Virus record (IMG/VR): IMGVR_UViG_2695420382_000010
Location: 1 to 7,627 of that record
Origin: a virus
Lineage: Duplodnaviria; Heunggongvirae; Uroviricota; Caudoviricetes
Length of the DNA: 7,627 nt
Direction: 5' to 3' (one strand)
Below the pieces are notes generated by a model. That model made no database searches. It was given only the letters and a program-made list of their open reading frames with translations, and was not told the origin of the DNA. The translations under genes and the position numbers were made by a program. Below are positions 1 to 7,627 of the stretch, piece after piece; the stretch's first letter is position 1; each line of letters begins with the position of its first letter.

Positions 1-225
1 CGCATACTTAAAAGCCCTGCTAATCGGACTGATGTCTGATGCCATTCCGAAAGCACACAAGACCGAAGCAATAAACCTCCAGTCCGTTCTGCTTATCTTC
101 GATTCATGACAGCCAATCATCTTTGCCAGACCGCGCTGGGTAAGCGTTGACAGGTTGATGAGTAAATCTGTTTCTGCGCGATCAACATCGCGCTGTGATA
201 GTTTGCTGTAACTTGTTTGTTCCAT
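1..225 (-). CDS. cII: CII-like transcriptional activator, partial (start codon at 225-223; the gene runs off the left edge of the window)
   Basis: Not in the ORF track because it is open at the window edge. Minus-strand translation from ATG (complement of 223-225) gives MEQTSYSKLSQRDVDRAETDLLINLSTLTQRGLAKMIGCHESKISRTDWRFIASVLCAFGM..., 75 codons with no stop. The pattern resembles lambda CII (helix-turn-helix with ...SQISRW..W...) and the gene sits downstream of cro, nutR and a tR1-like hairpin as in lambda. Confidence 0.6.
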   Translation of the reverse strand, partial: MEQTSYSKLSQRDVDRAETDLLINLSTLTQRGLAKMIGCHESKISRTDWRFIASVLCAFGMASDISPISRAFKYA

Positions 226-234
226 TTCTTACTA
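203..234 (+). promoter_or_regulatory. PRE-like CII-dependent promoter: TTGC-N6-TTGT direct repeat flanking the -35 position, then a 12-nt spacer and the -10-like TTACTA; it would drive antisense-to-cro transcription toward cI
   Basis: TTGC at 203-206, 6-nt spacer, TTGT at 213-216, then 12 nt and TTACTA at 229-234. The architecture matches lambda PRE (TTGC-N6-TTGC), and as in lambda it overlaps the cII start codon on the opposite strand. Confidence 0.4.
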
Positions 235-242
235 TTTCCATA

Positions 243-277
243 GGTAAATAATCACTAATACTCATCTTTCGATGAGT
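243..277 (-). terminator. tR1-like hairpin between nutR and cII (7-bp stem, GAAA loop, A/U-rich tail)
   Basis: Minus-strand RNA reads ACUCAUC-GAAA-GAUGAGU (plus 260-277) followed by AUUAGUGAUUAUUUACC. The position matches lambda tR1. The U-tract is imperfect, so this may be a partial or Rho-assisted terminator. Confidence 0.3.
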
Positions 278-289
278 GCTTAATTAGTT

Positions 290-324
290 ACCGCGTTGTC
301 GGCGGTGCAGATTGATAAAGAGCG
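290..324 (-). promoter_or_regulatory. nutR: boxA plus P22-type boxB hairpin
   Basis: On the minus strand, boxA is CGCTCTTTA (plus 316-324) and boxB is ACCGC-CGACAAC-GCGGT (plus 290-306; 5-bp stem, 7-nt loop). It lies immediately downstream of the cro stop, as lambdoid nutR does. The boxB matches the P22 nutR type as I recall it. Confidence 0.6.
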
Positions 325-334
325 GATCCGCTTA

Positions 335-550
335 TTAAGCGGCTTTGTGTTCAGGCGGGAACACGTCATCAAGACTGACTTTTGCGCCTAACTTGTTTAG
401 GCACGCAACAAGAGCACGGCATGTTTTAAGGTCTGGGAAGCGACGACCAGATTCCCAATGTCCGATAGCTCCCTGTGTGCATCCAACTGCCTTAGCAAGT
501 GTTGTTTGAGAGATATTCAGTGACTCTCGATATTTTCGTAGGTTGCTCAT
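335..550 (-). CDS. cro: Cro-like HTH repressor (71 aa)
   Basis: Track ORF 335..721, trimmed to the internal Met at 550 (MSNLRKYRESLNISQTTLAKAVGCTQGAIGHW...) because a GGAGGG Shine-Dalgarno sits 4 nt upstream and the longer form would run through the operator region and the cI start. It has an XRE-type helix-turn-helix and is divergent from cI across an operator region. Confidence 0.85.
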   Translation of the reverse strand: MSNLRKYRESLNISQTTLAKAVGCTQGAIGHWESGRRFPDLKTCRALVACLNKLGAKVSLDDVFPPEHKAA

Positions 551-661
551 ATGCCCTCCATAGTAACCATGAAACAATAATACGATATGTACTTTTGGAA
601 TGCAAACAAAAAATACATCTTGTGCATGGATGGTTTTAGTACAGAGCGTAATAATAAGGAT
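551..661. promoter_or_regulatory. OR-type divergent control region between cro and cI (operators, PR and presumably PRM)
   Basis: 110-bp AT-rich spacer between divergent cro and cI starts. It contains the 19-mer at 577-595 that is shared (17/19) with the PL region, and an ACAAGATG core at 614-625 that recurs in OL at 2918-2925. Confidence 0.6.
577..605 (-). promoter_or_regulatory. PR-like sigma70 promoter for cro (-35 TTGCAT, 17-bp spacer, -10 TATTAT)
   Basis: On the minus strand, TTGCAT is the complement of 600-605, the spacer is 17 bp, and TATTAT is the complement of 577-582. The predicted leader of about 20 nt carries GGAGGG before the cro ATG. Confidence 0.5.
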
Positions 662-1321
662 ATGAAAATGAAATGGTATGAACTGGCTAGATCCAGAATG
701 AAAGAGCTCGGCATAACTCAAGAGAAGTTAGCTGAAGAGCTTGGTATGACGCAGGGTGGAATTGGTCACTGGTTGCGCGGATCTCGTCATCCATCTCTTG
801 ACGAGATTGGTGTGGTGTTTAAATACCTTGGTATTGATAACGTCTCATTCAACCACGACGGTACATTCTCACCTGTTGGCGAATACTCATCTGCCCCCGT
901 TAAAAAACAATATGAGTACCCTGTTTTTTCTCATGTTCAGGCCGGGATGTTCTCGCCTGAGCTTAGAACCTTTACCAAAGGTGATGCGGAGAGATGGGTA
1001 AGCACAACCAAAAAAGCCAGTGATTCTGCATTCTGGCTTGAGGTTGAAGGTAATTCCATGACCGCGCCAACAGGATCCAAGCCCAGCTTTCCTGACGGAA
1101 TGTTAATTCTCGTTGACCCTGAGCAGGCTGTTGAGCCAGGTGATTTCTGCATAGCCAGACTTGGGGGTGATGAGTTTACCTTCAAGAAACTGATCAGGGA
1201 TAGCGGTCAGGTGTTTTTACAACCACTAAACCCACAGTACCCAATGATCCCATGCAATGAGAGTTGTTCCGTTGTGGGGAAAGTTATCGCTAGCCAGTGG
1301 CCTGAAGAGACGTTTGGGTGA
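662..1321 (+). CDS. cI: CI-type prophage repressor (N-terminal HTH domain plus C-terminal S24/LexA-like autocleavage-dimerisation domain), 219 aa
   Basis: Track ORF 587..1321, trimmed to Met 662 (MKMKWYEL...; Met 668 is an alternative) with AAGGA at 656-660. The C-terminal ~130 aa ([14 protein letters not shown]...[10 protein letters not shown]...[12 protein letters not shown]) match the lambda CI C-terminal domain as I recall it. The N-terminal domain is different and carries the helix-turn-helix [22 protein letters not shown]. Confidence 0.9.
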
Positions 1322-1452
1322 TGGATGGAAAAGTACGCCGGGCGTAGAGTGACCAGCAGATTTAAAGCCGACATTCATTGCATTCAATGCAAAAAGAAAC
1401 TTTATGCACTTTAACGATATAATGACTTACGCCATATATAACGGATTGATAT

Positions 1453-2283
1453 ATGAAACTTAATTTTTACGCCTCCTATCAACAAAACGGTAAGGAACGT
1501 TTTCCTATTGATTTGGTGTCAGGCTTATCCGAACAGGTAATCAAAGCAAAAAACAATGCCTTCGAGATTGATGATTACTTTATATTTGCTCATCACATTA
1601 GCAGAGAATGTTATTTAATAACAAAAACATATGACTCAGACTTGGTTAAAAGGGTCAATAAAACCACGCTCTCAGTCGATGAACTCAAAAACGTATTAGG
1701 CAGTGACGAAACGCTAGCGTTTCCATCATTCCTGTTGATCAAAGATGGCGTCATTGGTTATGCCTGCACTCAGCACGGGCCAAGAGTTCGTGAGCTTGAA
1801 ATTTACTTATCTAATAAATTGAACATAACAAAACCATTCAAGCTATGTTTAGAACCTCTGATGAGAGACGTAACTAGGGATGATGCTCTCGACATGGAGT
1901 TCATCGGTAGAACAACCTTAAGAGTTGAGTCTGGATCCAAGCTTTTGTCTCCTTTGCTGAGAGCTGCCGGGATCGAAACCATCGAAGAAGAGCTTCTTGA
2001 AGGTGTGGAAATAACAATAAAACCAAAAAGAATGAGAAATATCAGCAACATGTCCAAGGAGCTGATTCGTAATGCCGATGATTCTCATAGTGACATACAT
2101 CTTAAAGCGAAGGAGTACGCAGCTGATTTGCTAACTGACTACTACCTTTCAAGCAAGGGGCACATCAGTGCCAACATTTACAAATCGACAAATGAAGAAA
2201 TTGCAGAGGAAATGGAAATTTGCTACATAAGAATGAAAAATGTTATAATGAAAAGTTATAAAGATTTTTGTGAAGACGAGTAA
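1453..2283 (+). CDS. rexA: RexA homologue (abortive-infection/exclusion sensor component), 276 aa
   Basis: Same strand as cI and immediately downstream of it. Its length is close to lambda RexA (279 aa) and it shares blocks recalled from lambda RexA: FPSFL, EPLMR..T.DD, FIGRTT, I.IKPK, YLS.KGH.SA, EIAEEM. Confidence 0.85.
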   Translation: MKLNFYASYQQNGKERFPIDLVSGLSEQVIKAKNNAFEIDDYFIFAHHISRECYLITKTYDSDLVKRVNKTTLSVDELKNVLGSDETLAFPSFLLIKDGVIGYACTQHGPRVRELEIYLSNKLNITKPFKLCLEPLMRDVTRDDALDMEFIGRTTLRVESGSKLLSPLLRAAGIETIEEELLEGVEITIKPKRMRNISNMSKELIRNADDSHSDIHLKAKEYAADLLTDYYLSSKGHISANIYKSTNEEIAEEMEICYIRMKNVIMKSYKDFCEDE

Positions 2284-2313
2284 GAGTGAATACCTAAGGG
2301 TAAGGGAGGGCGT

Positions 2314-2751
2314 ATGAGAGAGCACAAAATCGTTCCCGGCGTATTGCTATTCGCTTTACCAATACTTTTCACTATTGTCGTTTACTGCATTTTCCGTAGC
2401 CTTACCTCAGCAATTTCGTTCACCGAGCACAGAGACGCGCTGGGAGCAGCTATATCTTCATATGCAGGGACCACTATCGCAATACTCATTGCCGCGTTGA
2501 CGTTTGTCATAGGCATCAGAGGAAAAAACATGCAAAAAGTAAAGGCATACGGATATATGACATCTGTCATTATTCTGTATGCACTGACCTTTGCGGAGCT
2601 TGGCATTGTTTTTTTTATGGGGTTATTTTTAATGGCCACAAGCAAGCAACCAATTGCTTTGTTGCCATCCTTATCGATCGGCCTATCAGCTTCATCAATG
2701 ATGCATATAAGCATCATACTTTTCCAACTCCTAAAATTCTCAAATAAATAA
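2314..2751 (+). CDS. rexB: RexB homologue (small polytopic inner-membrane protein partner of RexA), 145 aa
   Basis: GGGAGGG Shine-Dalgarno at 2303-2309. The protein is hydrophobic with about four predicted TM segments and shares blocks recalled from lambda RexB: MPGV, H/EHRD.LGA..SSYAGT.IAILIAALTF, YGYMTSV.I.YAL.F.ELG. It is followed directly by an intrinsic terminator. Confidence 0.85.
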   Translation: MREHKIVPGVLLFALPILFTIVVYCIFRSLTSAISFTEHRDALGAAISSYAGTTIAILIAALTFVIGIRGKNMQKVKAYGYMTSVIILYALTFAELGIVFFMGLFLMATSKQPIALLPSLSIGLSASSMMHISIILFQLLKFSNK

Positions 2752-2753
2752 CG

Positions 2754-2780
2754 ACCCGGCCTCAGCGCCGGGTTTTCTTT
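2754..2780 (+). terminator. tIMM-like Rho-independent terminator ending the cI-rexA-rexB operon
   Basis: GC-rich hairpin ACCCGGC (2754-2760), loop CTCAGC, GCCGGGT (2767-2773), followed by the T-tract TTTTCTTT, starting 3 nt after the rexB stop. Confidence 0.8.
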
Positions 2781-2960
2781 GCCTCTCGAACGCCCACCTA
2801 AAACACATAACAAATTGTATTTATTGAAAAATTGATAGATACAACTTGCTAAACAGTGCAATTCTGATCCCTCACCTACCAAACAATGCACCCCTGCAAA
2901 AAATAAATCCATAAAATACAAGATGGTATAAAAAACCAACAACATTTAGAACATTTTGTA

Positions 2961-2989
2961 TTGACTCAATAAAGTACACATCGTACTAT
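2961..2989 (+). promoter_or_regulatory. PL-like sigma70 promoter (-35 TTGACT, 17-bp spacer, -10 TACTAT) with an overlapping operator
   Basis: TTGACT at 2961-2966 and TACTAT at 2984-2989. The downstream CATCAGCAGGACGCA resembles the lambda PL transcript start. The segment 2971-2989 is 17/19 identical to the PR spacer and -10 segment, suggesting OL1. Confidence 0.55.
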
Positions 2990-3035
2990 TTAGCCATCAG
3001 CAGGACGCAGGAAGCCAAACGGAACAGATTGGCAG

Positions 3036-3069
3036 GCTCTTTAACTTCGATGGGGCGCTGACAAAGCGC
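3036..3069 (+). promoter_or_regulatory. nutL: boxA plus P22-type boxB hairpin
   Basis: boxA GCTCTTTAA at 3036-3044 and boxB GCGC-TGACAAA-GCGC at 3055-3069, lying between PL and the N start. The boxB matches the P22 nutL type as I recall it. Confidence 0.7.
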
Positions 3070-3188
3070 AAACAGATATCAAACGAGATGGGTTTGGCGG
3101 TGATGTGAATTGCAGCTGCAACGACAGCAACCAGAAGATCAGCACCTGGCGCATCACCACCAAAGCCATTTCACATGAGGAAAACATC

Positions 3189-3497
3189 ATGACGGTAATC
3201 GTGTACGGAAAATCAACATTTGCAGGAAATGCCAAAACTCGCCGTCATGAGCGGCGCAGAAAGCTGGCTATCGAGCGTGATGCCATCTGCAACATCATCG
3301 ATTCGATCTTCGGCACAGACAGCGAGGAACCTGTTCAGAAAGACACGAGAAAGCGTTTAAGCCTTTCTGAAAAAGCAATATCACTCGGAAGCCTTCGCTG
3401 CAAGAAGGCAGATGAATACAGTGGAAGTATTTGCCTGCCAAACATAGCCATTTACGCGGCAGGCTACAGGAAATCCAAACAGCTGACAGCAAGATGA
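3189..3497 (+). CDS. N: N-type transcription antiterminator, P22 gene 24-like, 102 aa (arginine-rich motif near the N terminus)
   Basis: Track ORF 3105..3497, trimmed to Met 3189 with GAGGA at 3176-3180. The start MTVIVYGKSTFAGNAKTRRHERRRKLAIERD contains the arginine-rich boxB-binding motif and matches the P22 gp24 N terminus as I recall it. It is the first gene after PL and nutL. Confidence 0.85.
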   Translation: MTVIVYGKSTFAGNAKTRRHERRRKLAIERDAICNIIDSIFGTDSEEPVQKDTRKRLSLSEKAISLGSLRCKKADEYSGSICLPNIAIYAAGYRKSKQLTAR

Positions 3498-3555
3498 CTT
3501 GTGTTGGTCGCCAGAAAATGAAATTAGACAGCAAACCACTTATTTGAGGTGAGAT

Positions 3556-4026
3556 ATGACAAAATCATGGAGCGTACCGTTTCCTGAATCAGAAACTGAA
3601 CATGATGGAATGCCTGTTTTCTGGAGATTCCAGGCGACAGTTGAAGAAGATGGGATAAAAATATTCGCACTTCAATATATAGCTTTTCATCAGACAGAGC
3701 ATTATGCATGGTTGGTTCCTGCGCATTGGATTGTTAATTTTAAACCAGCACCAAATCAGTGGTTACAGGAATGGAAACAAAGGAGAAATAGATATGCAAT
3801 TAAGAAAGTAGCAAAAAATGCAGAAAGATCTTTTGCATTCCCAACGAAGAAACTTGCTATTGAAAGTTTATTGCGTCGAAAAAAATACCATTTGGTGAGG
3901 ATCAAACAAGATTTGGCTGTCGTATCAACTCTTGTCGATGGGATGAAGAATATTGATACATCAACACCAGATATTGAATATAACTTTGGACACAACCAAG
4001 AAACAGAAAATTGGGTATTTTATTAG
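3556..4026 (+). CDS. Hypothetical protein, 156 aa; AT-rich orphan gene in the N-cIII slot
   Basis: Track ORF with GAGGTGA Shine-Dalgarno at about 3546-3552. GC content is about 30-37% against about 50-55% in cI and cIII. It has an aromatic-rich N-terminal half and a basic then acidic C-terminal half. I recognise no family. Confidence 0.7.
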   Translation: MTKSWSVPFPESETEHDGMPVFWRFQATVEEDGIKIFALQYIAFHQTEHYAWLVPAHWIVNFKPAPNQWLQEWKQRRNRYAIKKVAKNAERSFAFPTKKLAIESLLRRKKYHLVRIKQDLAVVSTLVDGMKNIDTSTPDIEYNFGHNQETENWVFY

Positions 4027-4101
4027 TACAAATAAGCACTGTGTATCCATTCCAACGAGTGAATACACGGAGCAATTTAAAGCGTAAATAAGGAGCACAC
4101 C

Positions 4102-4266
4102 ATGCAATATGCCATTGCAGGGTGGCCTGTTGCTGGCTGCCCTTCCGAATCTTTACTTGAACGAATCACCCGTAAATTACGTGACGGATGGAAACGCCTT
4201 ATCGACATACTTAATCAGCCAGGAGTCCCAAAGAATGGATCAAACACTTATGGCTATTCAGACTAA
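4102..4266 (+). CDS. cIII: CIII (inhibitor of FtsH-mediated CII degradation), 54 aa
   Basis: Not in the track because it is under 60 aa. ATG at 4102 with AGGAG at 4091-4095. It translates to MQYAIAGWPVAGCPSESLLERITRKLRDGWKRLIDILNQPGVPKNGSNTYGYSD, which matches lambda CIII as I recall it. Confidence 0.8.
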   Translation: MQYAIAGWPVAGCPSESLLERITRKLRDGWKRLIDILNQPGVPKNGSNTYGYSD

Positions 4267-4348
4267 ATTCACTATCGCCACTTTTATTGGCGATGAAAAG
4301 ATGTTTCGTGAGGCCGTCGAAGCCTACAGAAAATGGAGGTCAAAATGA
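4235..4348 (+). CDS. kil: Kil-like small protein (host cell-division inhibitor family), 37 aa
   Basis: This is the C-terminal part of track ORF 4109..4348, with Met at 4235 (MDQTLMAIQTKFTIATFIGDEKMFREAVEAYRKWRSK) preceded by AGGAG at 4221-4225. It overlaps the cIII 3' end out of frame. The N terminus matches lambda Kil as I recall it. Confidence 0.6.
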   Translation: MDQTLMAIQTKFTIATFIGDEKMFREAVEAYRKWRSK

Positions 4349-4533
4349 TTCCGGTAGAGCTGGCGAAAACTCCAGAGTTAAGTCGATTAAAAAGAGAATA
4401 TCACATTGCTGAGGCTCGTTACTGGCGTAAAGCGGGAGATAAATCAAAGAAACAACTTTGTTTATGGCAGGCACAAAGAGAGCGCATGAATGAGCGCGAG
4501 TTTCTTTCCGTCCCATCCGAATTACCATTCTGA
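4345..4533 (+). CDS. Hypothetical small basic protein, 62 aa
   Basis: Track ORF 4333..4533, trimmed to Met 4345 with GGAGG at 4335-4339. Its ATG overlaps the kil stop (ATGA), which suggests translational coupling. The protein is Arg/Lys-rich: MIPVELAKTPELSRLKREYHIAEARYWRK... Confidence 0.5.
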   Translation: MIPVELAKTPELSRLKREYHIAEARYWRKAGDKSKKQLCLWQAQRERMNEREFLSVPSELPF

Positions 4534-4541
4534 GGCAAATT

Positions 4542-5198
4542 ATGGGAACTGCGACATTAATACTCGGTGAATCTGGTACCGGAAAATCAACCAGTTTAAG
4601 AAACTTACCACCAGAAAAAACATTAATCATACAGTGCATAAACAAACCGCTACCATTCCCATCAAGTGATTGGGTTAAAATAAGCAAGGAAAACAATAAC
4701 GGGAACATATACAGAACAGATAATACTGAAAATATTGTAAGGGCACTAATTAATGCTCCGCATGAAATTGTAGTTATTGATGATTATCAGGCTGTGATGG
4801 TTAACGAACTAATGGGTAAATGCAATGAGAGAGGATATGACAAATTTACCTCGATAGGGAAAAACGCATGGGATGTGTTCAGGGCTGCTGGTGAAGGGGC
4901 AGACACTCGGAGAGTTTATATTCTGGCACACACGCAAACTGATGATTTTGGCTATACACGAATGAAAACCGTCGGAAAACTAGTCGATTCGACACTTGTT
5001 CCTGAAGGTTATTTCACTATCGTGTTAAGAACTCACGTACAGAACGGAAAATACTCATTTTCCACCCAGACAAACGGGAGTGATTGTTGTAAAAGTCCGG
5101 TTGGGATGTTTGATAGTCAGTTTATTGATAATGATTTGTACGAAGTAGATAAAAAAATATGCTCTTACTATGGGTTTGAAAAAAATGAGACGTCTTGA
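4542..5198 (+). CDS. P-loop NTPase, RecA-core-like; putative Sak4-type phage recombination ATPase, 218 aa
   Basis: Walker A GESGTGKST at residues 9-17 and a Walker B-like IVVIDD near residue 77. The size and position, where lambdoid phages carry their recombination module, fit Sak4-family single-strand-annealing ATPases. The family assignment is inferred, not confirmed. Confidence 0.7.
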   Translation: MGTATLILGESGTGKSTSLRNLPPEKTLIIQCINKPLPFPSSDWVKISKENNNGNIYRTDNTENIVRALINAPHEIVVIDDYQAVMVNELMGKCNERGYDKFTSIGKNAWDVFRAAGEGADTRRVYILAHTQTDDFGYTRMKTVGKLVDSTLVPEGYFTIVLRTHVQNGKYSFSTQTNGSDCCKSPVGMFDSQFIDNDLYEVDKKICSYYGFEKNETS

Positions 5199-5790
5199 GG
5201 TATCCGGCGAGAGATTTGGCAATTTAGTTGTTATTGGTGATGCAGGAATGCGTGGTACTCAAAGGTTGGTAAACTGTGTGTGTGACTGCGGAGTAGTTTG
5301 TGTTAAACAGCTTGGCAACCTCCGTTCAGGGCACACAAGAAGTTGTGGTTGCTCACGCTCATCTACAACAAAAGCAAGAAAAAACAAACATGGCATGTAT
5401 GGAACGCCAACATACAAGTCATGGTCTTCAATGTTAACAAGATGCTTCAATGAAAGAAATAGTAAATACAAACACTATGGAGGAAGAGGAATAACTGTTT
5501 GTGAACGGTGGCTGGACTTTAAATTATTTTTCGCTGATATGGGAAAAAGACCAGACGGAACTACATTGGGAAGAATTGATAACAATGGTAATTACGAACC
5601 ATCAAATTGCGAATGGCAGAAAAGTATCGAGCAAGCAAGAAATAAGAGTAATACCGTATTATTTAAATTCAATGGAGTGCTGGCAACAATTTCAGAGCAC
5701 TGCGAAAAAACTGGATTAAACCCAAGCACGGTAAGAAGCAGGATTTACACATATCATTGGTCTGTAGACAAGGCCTTATCAAAAGGATAA
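5185..5790 (+). CDS. Cys-rich putative nucleic-acid-binding / homing-endonuclease-like protein, about 201 aa (start ambiguous: 5170 or 5185)
   Basis: Track ORF 5170..5790. It overlaps the end of the upstream ATPase gene. It has an N-terminal Cys cluster (NCVCDCG...SGHTRSCGC), a central YKSW..M..RC.N....Y..YGGRGI.VCERW block and a GRIDNNGNYEPSNCEW block, which I recall from free-standing phage endonuclease-like genes, and a C-terminal HTH-like segment. Confidence 0.65.
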   Translation: MRRLEVSGERFGNLVVIGDAGMRGTQRLVNCVCDCGVVCVKQLGNLRSGHTRSCGCSRSSTTKARKNKHGMYGTPTYKSWSSMLTRCFNERNSKYKHYGGRGITVCERWLDFKLFFADMGKRPDGTTLGRIDNNGNYEPSNCEWQKSIEQARNKSNTVLFKFNGVLATISEHCEKTGLNPSTVRSRIYTYHWSVDKALSKG

Positions 5791-5794
5791 AAGC

Positions 5795-6382
5795 ATGAGC
5801 AACGTGATTTTTACTTATAACGAAGAAGCAGCACTGACCGCAGGGCAAGGTGGTTTTATTAACGAAACTGGCGCTCATATCATTACCATTACTGAAGCAG
5901 AACTAAAGCAATCAGAGAAAGGAGCCAAATTTATTGAGTTTTCTGGAGAATCCGACGACGGACGTAAAATCCAATATCTTAGCGTTTGTGTTCAGAAAAA
6001 TGACGGAACGGAAAACAAGTTTGGTGCAAACGTCGTTCATGCCATGATGGGGTGTGTTGGGATTAAGCAGTTAACGCAACATATGGTTTCCGCCAGTAAA
6101 TTTGTTGCTCCTGAATTTCATGGAAAGAAAATCGGGTTAGTGCTCCAGAAAGTATTAACCACAAACAAAAAGACTGGCGCAGACAGCTACCAGATGGAAA
6201 TACGCATCCCGTTTATTGCACAAACAGGTCAAACCCTTAAAGAAAAGTCGGAAGGCAAGCAACCAGAAACTATCGCCAACATGGTTGCCAGCCTCAAAGA
6301 TAAAGACAATCGCTCTAAAAACGTAAGCCAGAATCATGCAGATGATTATGGTTACAGCCAGAACGATTACCCTCCTTTCTGA
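5795..6382 (+). CDS. Hypothetical protein with an SSB-like acidic/aromatic C-terminal tail (candidate ssDNA-binding partner of the ATPase), 195 aa
   Basis: AAGGA Shine-Dalgarno about 9 nt upstream. The C terminus ...DDYGYSQNDYPPF resembles the SSB / gp2.5 tail (D-rich, ending in P-F). The body has no recognisable canonical SSB OB-fold signature, so the function is a hypothesis. Confidence 0.6.
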   Translation: MSNVIFTYNEEAALTAGQGGFINETGAHIITITEAELKQSEKGAKFIEFSGESDDGRKIQYLSVCVQKNDGTENKFGANVVHAMMGCVGIKQLTQHMVSASKFVAPEFHGKKIGLVLQKVLTTNKKTGADSYQMEIRIPFIAQTGQTLKEKSEGKQPETIANMVASLKDKDNRSKNVSQNHADDYGYSQNDYPPF

Positions 6383-6405
6383 TTACTGAAAATAAGGCTC
6401 CCATT

Positions 6406-6702
6406 ATGCCAGCGCCTCTGTATGGTGCGGATGACCCGCGCAACTGCTCCGGTAGCTCCAAGGCGGAGGTGCTGGATAAATTCAGGAAAAACTACGACCG
6501 GATAATGTCGCTACCGCAGGAAACGAAAGAGGAAAAGGAATTTCGCCATTGTATATGGCTTGCAGAGAAAGAAGAACGCGAGCGAATTTACCAGACATCA
6601 ATCCGACCATTCCGCAAAGCCACATATACCCACTTCCCTGAATATATCGACCCGCGCCTGCGTAATTACCGCTCACGCTATGGCGCTATCAGTAATGACT
6701 GA
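6406..6702 (+). CDS. Hypothetical protein, 98 aa
   Basis: Track ORF with AAGG about 9 nt upstream, co-directional with the operon. The protein is charged and Arg-rich. Its size and position are compatible with a P22 Abc-type anti-RecBCD protein, but the sequence is not recognised. Confidence 0.55.
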   Translation: MPAPLYGADDPRNCSGSSKAEVLDKFRKNYDRIMSLPQETKEEKEFRHCIWLAEKEERERIYQTSIRPFRKATYTHFPEYIDPRLRNYRSRYGAISND

Positions 6703-6712
6703 GGAATTAACA

Positions 6713-7003
6713 ATGAAAACAATGAAGCTAAACATCGACCTCGGCAAATACGTTATTACCGGAACCAAACACGACCTGATTCTTAGCGAAAGAGGAATTA
6801 TCAAAGAAGGTGAGAATGCAGGGAAAGAAACACTAAGTCGTATCGGTTATTACAGCAAGTTTGAGCATCTGGTTAAAGAGTTATGCAACCGTGAAATCCT
6901 GTTATCTCAGGCGCAGACGCTACAGGATATTCAGCAGCATATCGAAACTTTAGGTGTGTCACTTAGCATGGCCGTTGACCAGTTCGTTGAGAGTAAATCA
7001 TGA
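6713..7003 (+). CDS. Hypothetical protein, 96 aa
   Basis: Trimmed from track ORF 6560..7003 to Met 6713, with GAGGA at 6701-6705 straight after the upstream stop. Sequence [22 protein letters not shown]... Confidence 0.55.
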
Positions 7004-7167
7004 GAGGACTTGCATACAATCCCGGCATTCTTCCGGCAGAAATGATTATTCGCCAGCGCGTAAAGCCAATGCCATCGAGAGAGGAATTGCTTAAGAGAAA
7101 GAGTTTCGGTTCTGTTAATGACAACAAATATCTGAATGCGATGTGGCGCAAAGGAGGCAACCAGTGA
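7000..7167 (+). CDS. Hypothetical small protein, 55 aa
   Basis: Not in the track because it is under 60 aa. Its ATG overlaps the upstream stop (ATGA) and its stop overlaps the downstream GTG start (GTGA). It translates to [55 protein letters not shown]. Support is positional only. Confidence 0.35.
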
Positions 7168-7627
7168 GCAAGATTGACTATCAGGCACTGCGTGCCAAGG
7201 CAGAAAAAGCAACTAAAGGAAGCTACATCGTAGGGCATACATCTGTTAATCGGCACGGCAATTTAACAGGAGTTTTTGTTTGTCAAAAATGGAAAGGAGA
7301 ACCCGGTGGTGTGATTGCGGAATGTCATGTTAACTGCCTGGTTGAAACAGATGTTCAGGCTTATGCAAACGCTGAATTTATTGCTGCTTTTAATCCAAAT
7401 GTTGCGCTGGCACTACTGGATGAACGGGAAAGAAACCTGCAATACATCAAAAGCCGCGATCAGGAGAACGAGGAAATTGCGCTAACGGTAGGGAAGTTGC
7501 GTGTTGAGCTGGAAGCAGCAGAGAACAACCTTATTGATAGTGAATGCCATGTTGCTGAACTGGAAGAAGCGCTACGCGATAAGCAGGCGTTACTTGAAGC
7601 CTCAGAAAAGCGCATAGCAGAACTGGA
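7164..7627 (+). CDS. Coiled-coil protein, possibly Ea22-like, 3' partial (GTG start; open to the end of the window)
   Basis: Strong AAGGAGG Shine-Dalgarno at 7151-7157, 6 nt before GTG 7164. The frame stays open for 154 codons to the window end. The C-terminal part visible is heptad-like and rich in Glu/Leu/Ala (...[43 protein letters not shown]). The N terminus [19 protein letters not shown] resembles Ea22-like prophage proteins as I recall them. Confidence 0.5.

Follow-up and report, generated by a model that had tools for sequence, protein, structure and literature searches.

The DNA analysed here, hereafter the window, is a stretch of 7,627 nucleotides from a tailed phage (IMG/VR record IMGVR_UViG_2695420382_000010, positions 1 to 7,627), and it carries an open reading frame (ORF) lodged between two recombination genes, sak4 and ssb. 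We conclude that this ORF is probably a free-standing homing endonuclease-like gene at the sak4/ssb junction, belonging to a His-less class that is PacI-like and related to the IPA-HNH genes. We hold this reading with a confidence somewhat better than even, on the combined strength of a predicted nuclease fold with conserved Arg, Tyr and Asn residues, modular DNA-binding domains, an abundance of empty sites, a patchy and partly incongruent distribution, the recurrent occupation of the junction by different lineages and a near-identical block of sequence found in diverged backgrounds.

The position of the ORF is as the initial annotation had described it, beginning within the last codons of the upstream ATPase gene. 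The sak4 stop codon (TGA, 5196-5198) lies within the ORF, with an overlap of 14 nucleotides if translation starts at ATG 5185 and of 29 nucleotides if it starts at ATG 5170, and the ssb start codon at 5795 is found 4 nucleotides past the ORF stop. ATG 5185 is the start called by PGAP in identical prophages and the point at which the N-termini of homologs align; residue numbering throughout follows the 206-residue version (ATG 5170). The ORF is a real gene and not a chance frame, because it has more than 4800 homologs (top E 6e-114), shows purifying selection when compared with its closest ortholog (pN 0.094, pS 0.53, dN/dS 0.11) and is annotated as the exact same protein in Shigella and E. coli records, under the label "hypothetical" (the UniRef label is "HNH endonuclease"). 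Signals for a promoter or terminator of its own are no more frequent than in shuffled sequence and the ORF belongs to the pL operon; expression is therefore expected in lytic growth only, at a time when the genomes of other lambdoid phages, whether co-infecting or co-induced, can serve as targets. An intron-borne gene was ruled out, as the ORF lies between genes and the sole Rfam match in the window is the cIII thermoregulator. The 90%-identity cluster containing the ORF also contains 218-residue Sak4 proteins; since the sequences are unrelated, this probably arose in clustering, through gene calls that overlap or are fused.

An alignment of 40 homologs divides the protein into three modules, namely an N-terminal Cys-cluster unit, a core and a helix-turn-helix (HTH) tail (table 1). 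The sequence blocks singled out in the initial annotation are all present: the Cys cluster CVCDCG and SCGC at residues 36-41 and 58-61, YGGRGITVCERW at 103-114 and NGNYEPSNCEW at 139-149. The Cys-cluster module, presumably a zinc-binding DNA-recognition module, is missing in some family members and present in two to three copies in others. A possible link between it and the DNA-binding CapR/DUF723 zinc finger, known from T5orf172 homing endonuclease genes (HEGs), was explored: one member has a weak CapR match (E 0.0012) and ten others have none. The HTH-like C terminus, which the initial annotation had also proposed, gives a weak match to Pfam HTH_23 over residues 172-192 (E 0.037, under the gathering score; HTH_23 is matched in 5 of the 40 family members), and it folds into three helices in the AlphaFold2 model (174-181, 185-194 and 199-204). 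Only in distant phage members (muut gp217, VR26 and SRT6 gp136) is the HTH replaced by an AP2-like C-terminus.

AlphaFold2 modelling was confident, with a pLDDT (predicted local distance difference test) score of 93.8 for the whole protein and of 88 when the core was modelled by itself, and among the 40 homologs the invariant core residues are W85, R91, C92, Y103, G104, R106, G107, V110, W114, F117, F120, R135, Y142, N146 and N158. The beta-hairpin plus alpha-helix (beta-beta-alpha-metal) core of the HNH clan is present in the predicted structure, made up of a strand (131-135), a loop, a second strand (147-151) and a helix (152-157). Among PDB structures, the HNH restriction enzyme PacI is the sole clear structural relative of the predicted core; a Foldseek search found nothing. 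The endonuclease-like architecture put forward in the initial annotation is thus upheld by this beta-beta-alpha core and its structural relative, as well as by the family assignments given below. Across 461 non-identical core domains, R135 is conserved in 97%, Y142 in 93%, N146 in 98%, N158 in 97%, Q155 in 92% and H74 in 89%. Arg135 stands at the end of strand 1, at the site of the general-base His (of 459 aligned domains, 97% have Arg there), and the canonical structural Asn before strand 2 and the metal-site Asn/His of the helix are matched by N146 and N158. The conserved Cys residues of the core are C92, C147 and, at 85%, C111; the Cys cluster sits in the separate N-terminal module.

PacI is an exceptional His-Me finger enzyme without the catalytic His, using a loop Tyr (PMC5714182, PMC4081073), and its catalytic residues are given in secondary sources as Arg93, Tyr100 and His42 (PMC13139853). 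Its overall fold is similar to that of the predicted core. Arg93 and Tyr100 are seven residues apart, as are R135 and Y142 here, an equivalence taken from sequence spacing, and His42 lies 51 residues before Arg93, with His74 found 61 residues before R135 in a comparison made by spacing alone. In PacI an Asp metal ligand is found beside the Arg, where the window clade has Gly. Moreover, PacI is a 142-residue homodimeric restriction enzyme with an 8-bp site, whereas the window protein is a three-module phage protein with extra predicted DNA-binding domains and an HEG-like distribution. Judging from the model, the core would be a divergent His-less beta-beta-alpha-metal (His-Me finger) domain of the PacI type, in which Arg135 would take the place of the canonical His, Tyr142 might act as base or nucleophile, possibly with the help of His74, and Asn158 might hold the metal.

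Homology searches place the protein in a very large family. Two PHROGs are matched, phrog_374 (E 3e-64) and phrog_3377 (E 2e-49), both named "HNH endonuclease". At E<=1e-3 the core alone retrieves 112,299 cluster representatives, a number that falls to 82,825 at E<=1e-10; the clusters are at the ~50% identity level. In phages the core was found in 1096 records, whose hosts include Staphylococcus, Bacillus, Vibrio, Pseudomonas and Mycobacterium; multiple copies per record are frequent, and the adjacent genes often encode DNA polymerase, ligase or dUTPase. Many family proteins have 2-4 cores in tandem, and we found no further nuclease domain in family proteins, those consisting of two cores only included. 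Four metagenomic proteins (P0121, P0123, P0138 and P0152) are composed of 2-4 tandem cores or of full zinc-module/core/HTH units, reach up to 834 residues and have no further Pfam domain; such proteins might represent nucleases that are pseudo-dimeric, arrays of DNA-binding units or fusions of separate gene calls. A weak and poorly aligned core match (32% over residues 86-190) was also found in a "DNA polymerase I" coding sequence of Salmonella phage SE40 (L104, 2558-3916), which in addition has a weak VRR_NUC match; related records are named "intein-containing DNA polymerase".

Two groups of known HEGs resemble the window family. In the HNH_3 type (I-HmuI, I-BasI and T4 Mob; PF13392) the motif layout is xDH/RxDxNxxNNxxxNLRW...N, to be compared with LGRIDNNGNYEPSNCEW...Q..N here. 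Both groups are modular, with separate DNA-binding modules, and free-standing between phage genes. In contrast, the window family has Arg for the catalytic His (97%), has no member at Pfam thresholds and contains a helical region of some 60 extra residues (W85...YGGRGI.VC..W..F..F..DMG) ahead of the motif. The second group is formed by the IPA-HNH HEGs of vibriophage ICP1 (gp59, gp115/116 and gp209), classed as atypical HNH HEGs too divergent for Pfam HNH_3 (Barth, Dunham and Seed 2023, PMC10448857 / PMC10055350). The cores of gp59 and of the window family are homologous (hhalign probability 90.7%, E 1.2e-6, 111 columns), although identity is low, BLASTP giving just a 37-residue patch, and gp59 has Lys (LDKD) at the Arg position. 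Genes of both families are free-standing, variably present, adjoin replication or recombination genes and are beyond the reach of Pfam HNH_3. IPA-HNH proteins have a C-terminal AP2, and distant members of the window family have an AP2-like domain there, whereas the window protein has an HTH and an N-terminal Cys module. A further candidate, the cyanophage free-standing homing endonuclease F-CphI, was rejected because it uses an Endo VII motif and is a member of another family.

The distribution of the gene is that of an optional element. Among phage records, only the Stx2a phage Stx2_16002 matches the whole sak4-ORF-ssb region. In HK620, HK629, TL-2011a and many Stx phages both flanks match and ~576 bases are missing, and sak4 directly abuts ssb in HK620 and in ~280 phage records. 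Similarly, of 5426 complete E. coli genomes, 181 have the contiguous HK620-type junction and 3 the block with the ORF. The suggestion of the initial annotation that the gene invades a phage operon agrees with these abundant empty sites, as with the predicted nuclease fold. Its further suggestion that the two neighbours cooperate has experimental backing: HK620 Sak4 is a RecA-like annealing protein, and the adjacent SSB stimulates it via an NDYPPF tail (PMC5928155). In one of the three E. coli carriers, SCPM-O-B-7615 (NZ_CP144926.1; L005, 3783-4996), an IS3-family insertion splits the ORF after about residue 80, with sak4 and ssb intact on either side.

Comparison with gene-less prophages, as proposed in the initial annotation, defined the right boundary sharply, but a clean insertion relative to HK620 had to be rejected. 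Homology to HK620 and TL-2011a ends at 4673 and 4665, respectively, and resumes at 5793, 2 nucleotides before the ssb ATG; the difference is thus a 1119-bp replacement that includes the divergent 3' part of sak4. The right boundary falls at 5793 in the near-isogenic empty site of E. coli FDAARGOS_943 (99.2% identity to the window over the right flank, 5793-7627), and at 5792 in the more distant locus L017. On the left, 4673 lies past the sak4 Walker A region. The window Sak4 is a chimera with an HK620-like head, because homology stops at 4673 and resumes at 5793: positions 4542-4673 of sak4 are HK620-like and 4674-5198 divergent, three-quarters of the gene having been replaced at the 3' end, and identity between the window and HK620 Sak4 proteins is 51% over the whole length in BLASTP. 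The ORF marks a recombination boundary inside sak4. Three prophage backgrounds share the segment from ~4600 to 5792 at 99.66% identity but their flanks at 96-97.5% (a difference of 2.5-3.7%), with mismatches at 4 of 1193 bases in the segment and at 41 of 1105 in the flanks (Fisher p 9e-10). At the sequence level this pattern is evidence of lateral spread independent of the flanks, although ordinary recombination could produce the same pattern. The base composition of the block gives no sign of a foreign origin.

More distant relatives extend this picture. We examined eight loci with an ORF 57-82% identical, five from a protein look-up (L006, L007, L011, L013 and L014) and three from a scan of viral contigs (L018, L019 and L023). 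In 8/8 the gene is located directly downstream of a Sak4 homolog in the same orientation, overlapping its stop by 4-14 nucleotides, and in most an SSB-like gene follows directly, overlapping or abutting. The insertion point is always right after a conserved YYG/FYG near the Sak4 C-terminus. By contrast, most of the 80 Sak4 loci in viral contigs are empty, a family member occupying the junction only in L018, L019 and L023 (59-62%), L032 (43%) and L033 (35%). In the neighbour-joining tree of Sak4, the empty loci include L017, the sister of the window, L006 and L007, and L021, the sister of L018 and L019. The two identities are incongruent in the case of L014, which differs from the window more in Sak4 (48% identical) than in the ORF (58%); elsewhere the divergence of the ORF roughly keeps step with that of Sak4 (86/82%, 82/70% and 64/61%). 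The junction is also held by other lineages of the family (35-43% identity) in L032 and L033, and in L060 such a lineage is found on the opposite side of sak4. The L060 member, from a Glaesserella parasuis prophage (1893-2504), is a 203-residue three-module protein encoded directly upstream of sak4 with an ATGA overlap; it has LDRID instead of LGRID, its NCBI name is "AP endonuclease" and the sak4-ssb junction of that prophage is unoccupied. In L013 a canonical HNH_3 (PF13392) gene is found 1.9 kb downstream of the sak4-ORF-ssb trio (6504-7175), so two different HNH-type genes reside in one early region.

Taken as a homing endonuclease-like gene, the ORF might operate as follows. Its product would be made in lytic growth only, from the N-antiterminated pL transcript and with translation coupled to sak4, and would recognise DNA through the Cys-cluster (probably zinc) module and the C-terminal HTH. 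Gene-less phages residing in the same cell or infecting it would be nicked or cut in their sak4-ssb region, and repair off the gene-carrying genome would copy the gene together with adjoining sak4 sequence. A carrier would be immune through a site altered by the insertion, by the divergent sak4 3' end or by both. The sharp right boundary at the ssb start and the left boundary in conserved sak4 may indicate a target at or near the sak4/ssb junction that is destroyed by the insertion; alternatively, the same boundaries might reflect co-conversion of sak4 sequence. Co-conversion of flanking markers is a feature of the free-standing HEGs SegF, SegG and MobE of T-even phages. These are likewise optional genes between conserved genes, associated with replaced adjoining sequence in the neighbouring gene, with one sharp junction and the other set by homology. 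They belong to other nuclease families (GIY-YIG and canonical HNH), and the likeness of the window gene to them is one of sequence arrangement.

Several observations weigh against such a role. The canonical general-base His is missing, residue 142 is Phe in 7% of domains and Arg135 is preceded by Gly134 in the window protein and its clade, a position at which Asp (57%), Glu (12%) and Gly (15%) occur in the family. Two Cys4 zinc sites flank the PacI active site and none is found in the window core, and searches of PDB sequences with phmmer and with a family-profile hmmsearch detected nothing relevant, similarity between PacI and the window protein included. The profile searches proposed in the initial annotation thus gave a divided answer: the PHROG HNH families, the predicted nuclease fold and the IPA-HNH homology speak for a nuclease, but HNH profiles (PF01844, PF13392 and others) match neither the window protein nor 40 close homologs nor 8 distant phage members. 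The only HNH_3 trace was seen in the family member Bastille gp072 (E 0.059), exactly over the motif. Scans of the ORF against Pfam, NCBIfam and PADLOC assign no family, weak HTH_23 being the sole Pfam match. Proteins with 2-4 tandem cores are also compatible with a pure DNA-binding domain. Homing of IPA-HNH genes is unverified according to their own authors (PMC10448857 / PMC10055350), and we found no demonstrated cleavage or homing for any member of the window family or of IPA-HNH. Since the block replaces HK620 sequence and is not cleanly inserted, its difference from HK620 could be due to ordinary mosaic recombination. Finally, relatives down to 57% identity keep their position (14-nucleotide overlap) and co-diverge roughly with Sak4, and a fixed position together with co-divergence also fits a vertically inherited component of the module.

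Part of this evidence would suit a nuclease-dead relic of an HEG-like family, retained only as a DNA-binding regulator or as a passenger, with the block moving by ordinary homologous or mosaic lambdoid recombination. We consider this unlikely, though it deserves consideration. Arg for the catalytic His, Gly134 for the usual metal-ligand Asp and the failure of HNH profiles to match would all be expected of a dead enzyme, the tandem cores of many proteins look like DNA-binding repeats and the block boundaries lie at gene borders or conserved patches, like those of classical lambdoid mosaicism. Smad MH1 and Enpp are His-Me fingers in which catalysis was lost and DNA binding retained (PMC5714182). 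Nevertheless, the strong conservation of R135, N146 and N158 (97-98%) and of Y142 (93%) among the 461 domains, with the Arg/Tyr spacing of PacI reproduced, speaks against a loss of catalysis, as does an HEG-like distribution in a family with no other nuclease domain. Furthermore, single-Asn metal sites are found in the active His-Me enzymes I-PpoI and Serratia nuclease, which also counts against a relic.

In an alternative scenario, the ORF would be a functional third component of the Sak4-SSB module, a nuclease or DNA-binding factor making or processing ends or nicks, as Exo does with Red-beta. The constant orientation and position in all eight loci, the rough co-divergence with Sak4, the strong purifying selection and the lack of a nuclease partner gene in the HK620 module are in favour of this scenario, yet we regard it as improbable. 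HK620 Sak4 and SSB function without the ORF (PMC5928155), which makes it dispensable, and most Sak4 loci, sister lineages included, do not have the gene. An IS3 element splits it in one E. coli strain, the L060 copy lies upstream of sak4 instead, and hundreds of phages have family members in unrelated gene contexts, away from any sak4. A bolder version of the partner role, to which we likewise give little credence, would see in the ORF a sak4-coupled, Tyr/Arg-dependent His-less nickase that generates single-stranded DNA ends or nicks for Sak4-SSB annealing and is not merely selfish. If true, Sak4 recombinases would gain a nuclease partner not known so far, and the conserved position and co-divergence with one Sak4 lineage would reflect function and not site-specific homing.

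Under the homing endonuclease-like reading, the ORF itself is an ordinary HEG-like passenger in a prophage operon, and its kind is known: free-standing HEGs of phages, atypical HNH proteins and the PHROG annotation have all been described. We found no prior description of a three-module subfamily tied to the sak4/ssb junction or of the chimeric sak4, nor of the PacI-like Arg/Tyr signature that is maintained in a family which has no Pfam model and exceeds 100,000 clusters. For the core family as a whole (~112,000 clusters at 50% identity) there is neither a Pfam nor an NCBIfam model, and we found no biochemically tested member in the literature. As read from sequence, its conserved residues suggest the rare chemistry of PacI, in which Arg and Tyr replace His. 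Nuclease genes have been proposed to set limits to genetic exchange between phages, Stx-converting ones included, and the recombination boundary inside sak4 agrees with this idea. The setting is an E. coli lambdoid phage with a characterised Sak4-SSB pair and a natural empty site in HK620, and therefore cleavage assays, target mapping and homing crosses should be straightforward.

Table 1. Coordinates of the features in the window, in order of position
Feature	Position	Strand	Remarks
cI repressor	587-1321		
RexA-like exclusion gene	1453-2283		after cI, as in lambda
RexB-like exclusion gene	2314-2751		
lambda cIII thermoregulator RNA	4089-4147		Rfam RF01804, 88.5 bits; at cIII gene start
hkaM-like gene	4333-4533	+	
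sak4 (RecA-like single-strand-annealing ATPase), chimeric allele	4542-5198	+	phrog_2872, E 4e-82
Block differing from empty-site phages	4674-5792	+	divergent sak4 3' part and extra gene; blastn breakpoints
Homing endonuclease-like ORF	5185-5790	+	201 residues (206 from alternative ATG 5170)
N-terminal beta-rich Cys-cluster module	5197-5355	+	GxRFGxLxV...CxCxCG...SCGC; residues 10-62
Conserved core domain	5365-5655	+	residues 66-162; predicted PacI-like His-Me-finger fold
Beta-beta-alpha motif TLGRIDNNGNYEPSNCEWQKSIEQARN	5560-5643	+	Arg135 (5572-5574) at canonical His position; Tyr142 (5593-5595) in loop
C-terminal helix-turn-helix-like DNA-binding module (predicted)	5662-5781	+	residues 165-204
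ssb (HK620 HkaK type, DUF669)	5795-6382	+	phrog_743, E 3e-66; C-terminal NDYPPF
abc2 (anti-RecBCD), last gene of the recombination module	6406-6702	+	Pfam PF11043, E 7e-59

The neighbouring genes identify the window as the immunity and early-left (pL) region of a lambdoid prophage, in which the early-left genes lie on the + strand (table 1). An N-like gene and a phrog_1636 gene lie between RexB and the cIII thermoregulator RNA, which is followed by cIII, kil and the hkaM-like gene. The gene layout is that of phage HK620, in which the module reads kil-hkaM-sak4-ssb-abc2 and sak4 and ssb overlap by ATGA; the window SSB is 98% identical to that of HK620 (HkaK) and shares its NDYPPF end. At 1453-2751 the closest ORF-carrying prophages (RMDEC465 and UTAK-1) have other genes. 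Around abc2 (6400-6700) identity is just 78-81% to prophages whose ssb is 96-99.8% identical, and 48 mismatches fall within 6500-6599, placing a second mosaic breakpoint right after ssb. In the listed 147-residue ORF at 6560-7003 the DUF5405 / phrog_154 match begins at residue 52; the true start of this gene is probably near 6712, downstream of abc2.

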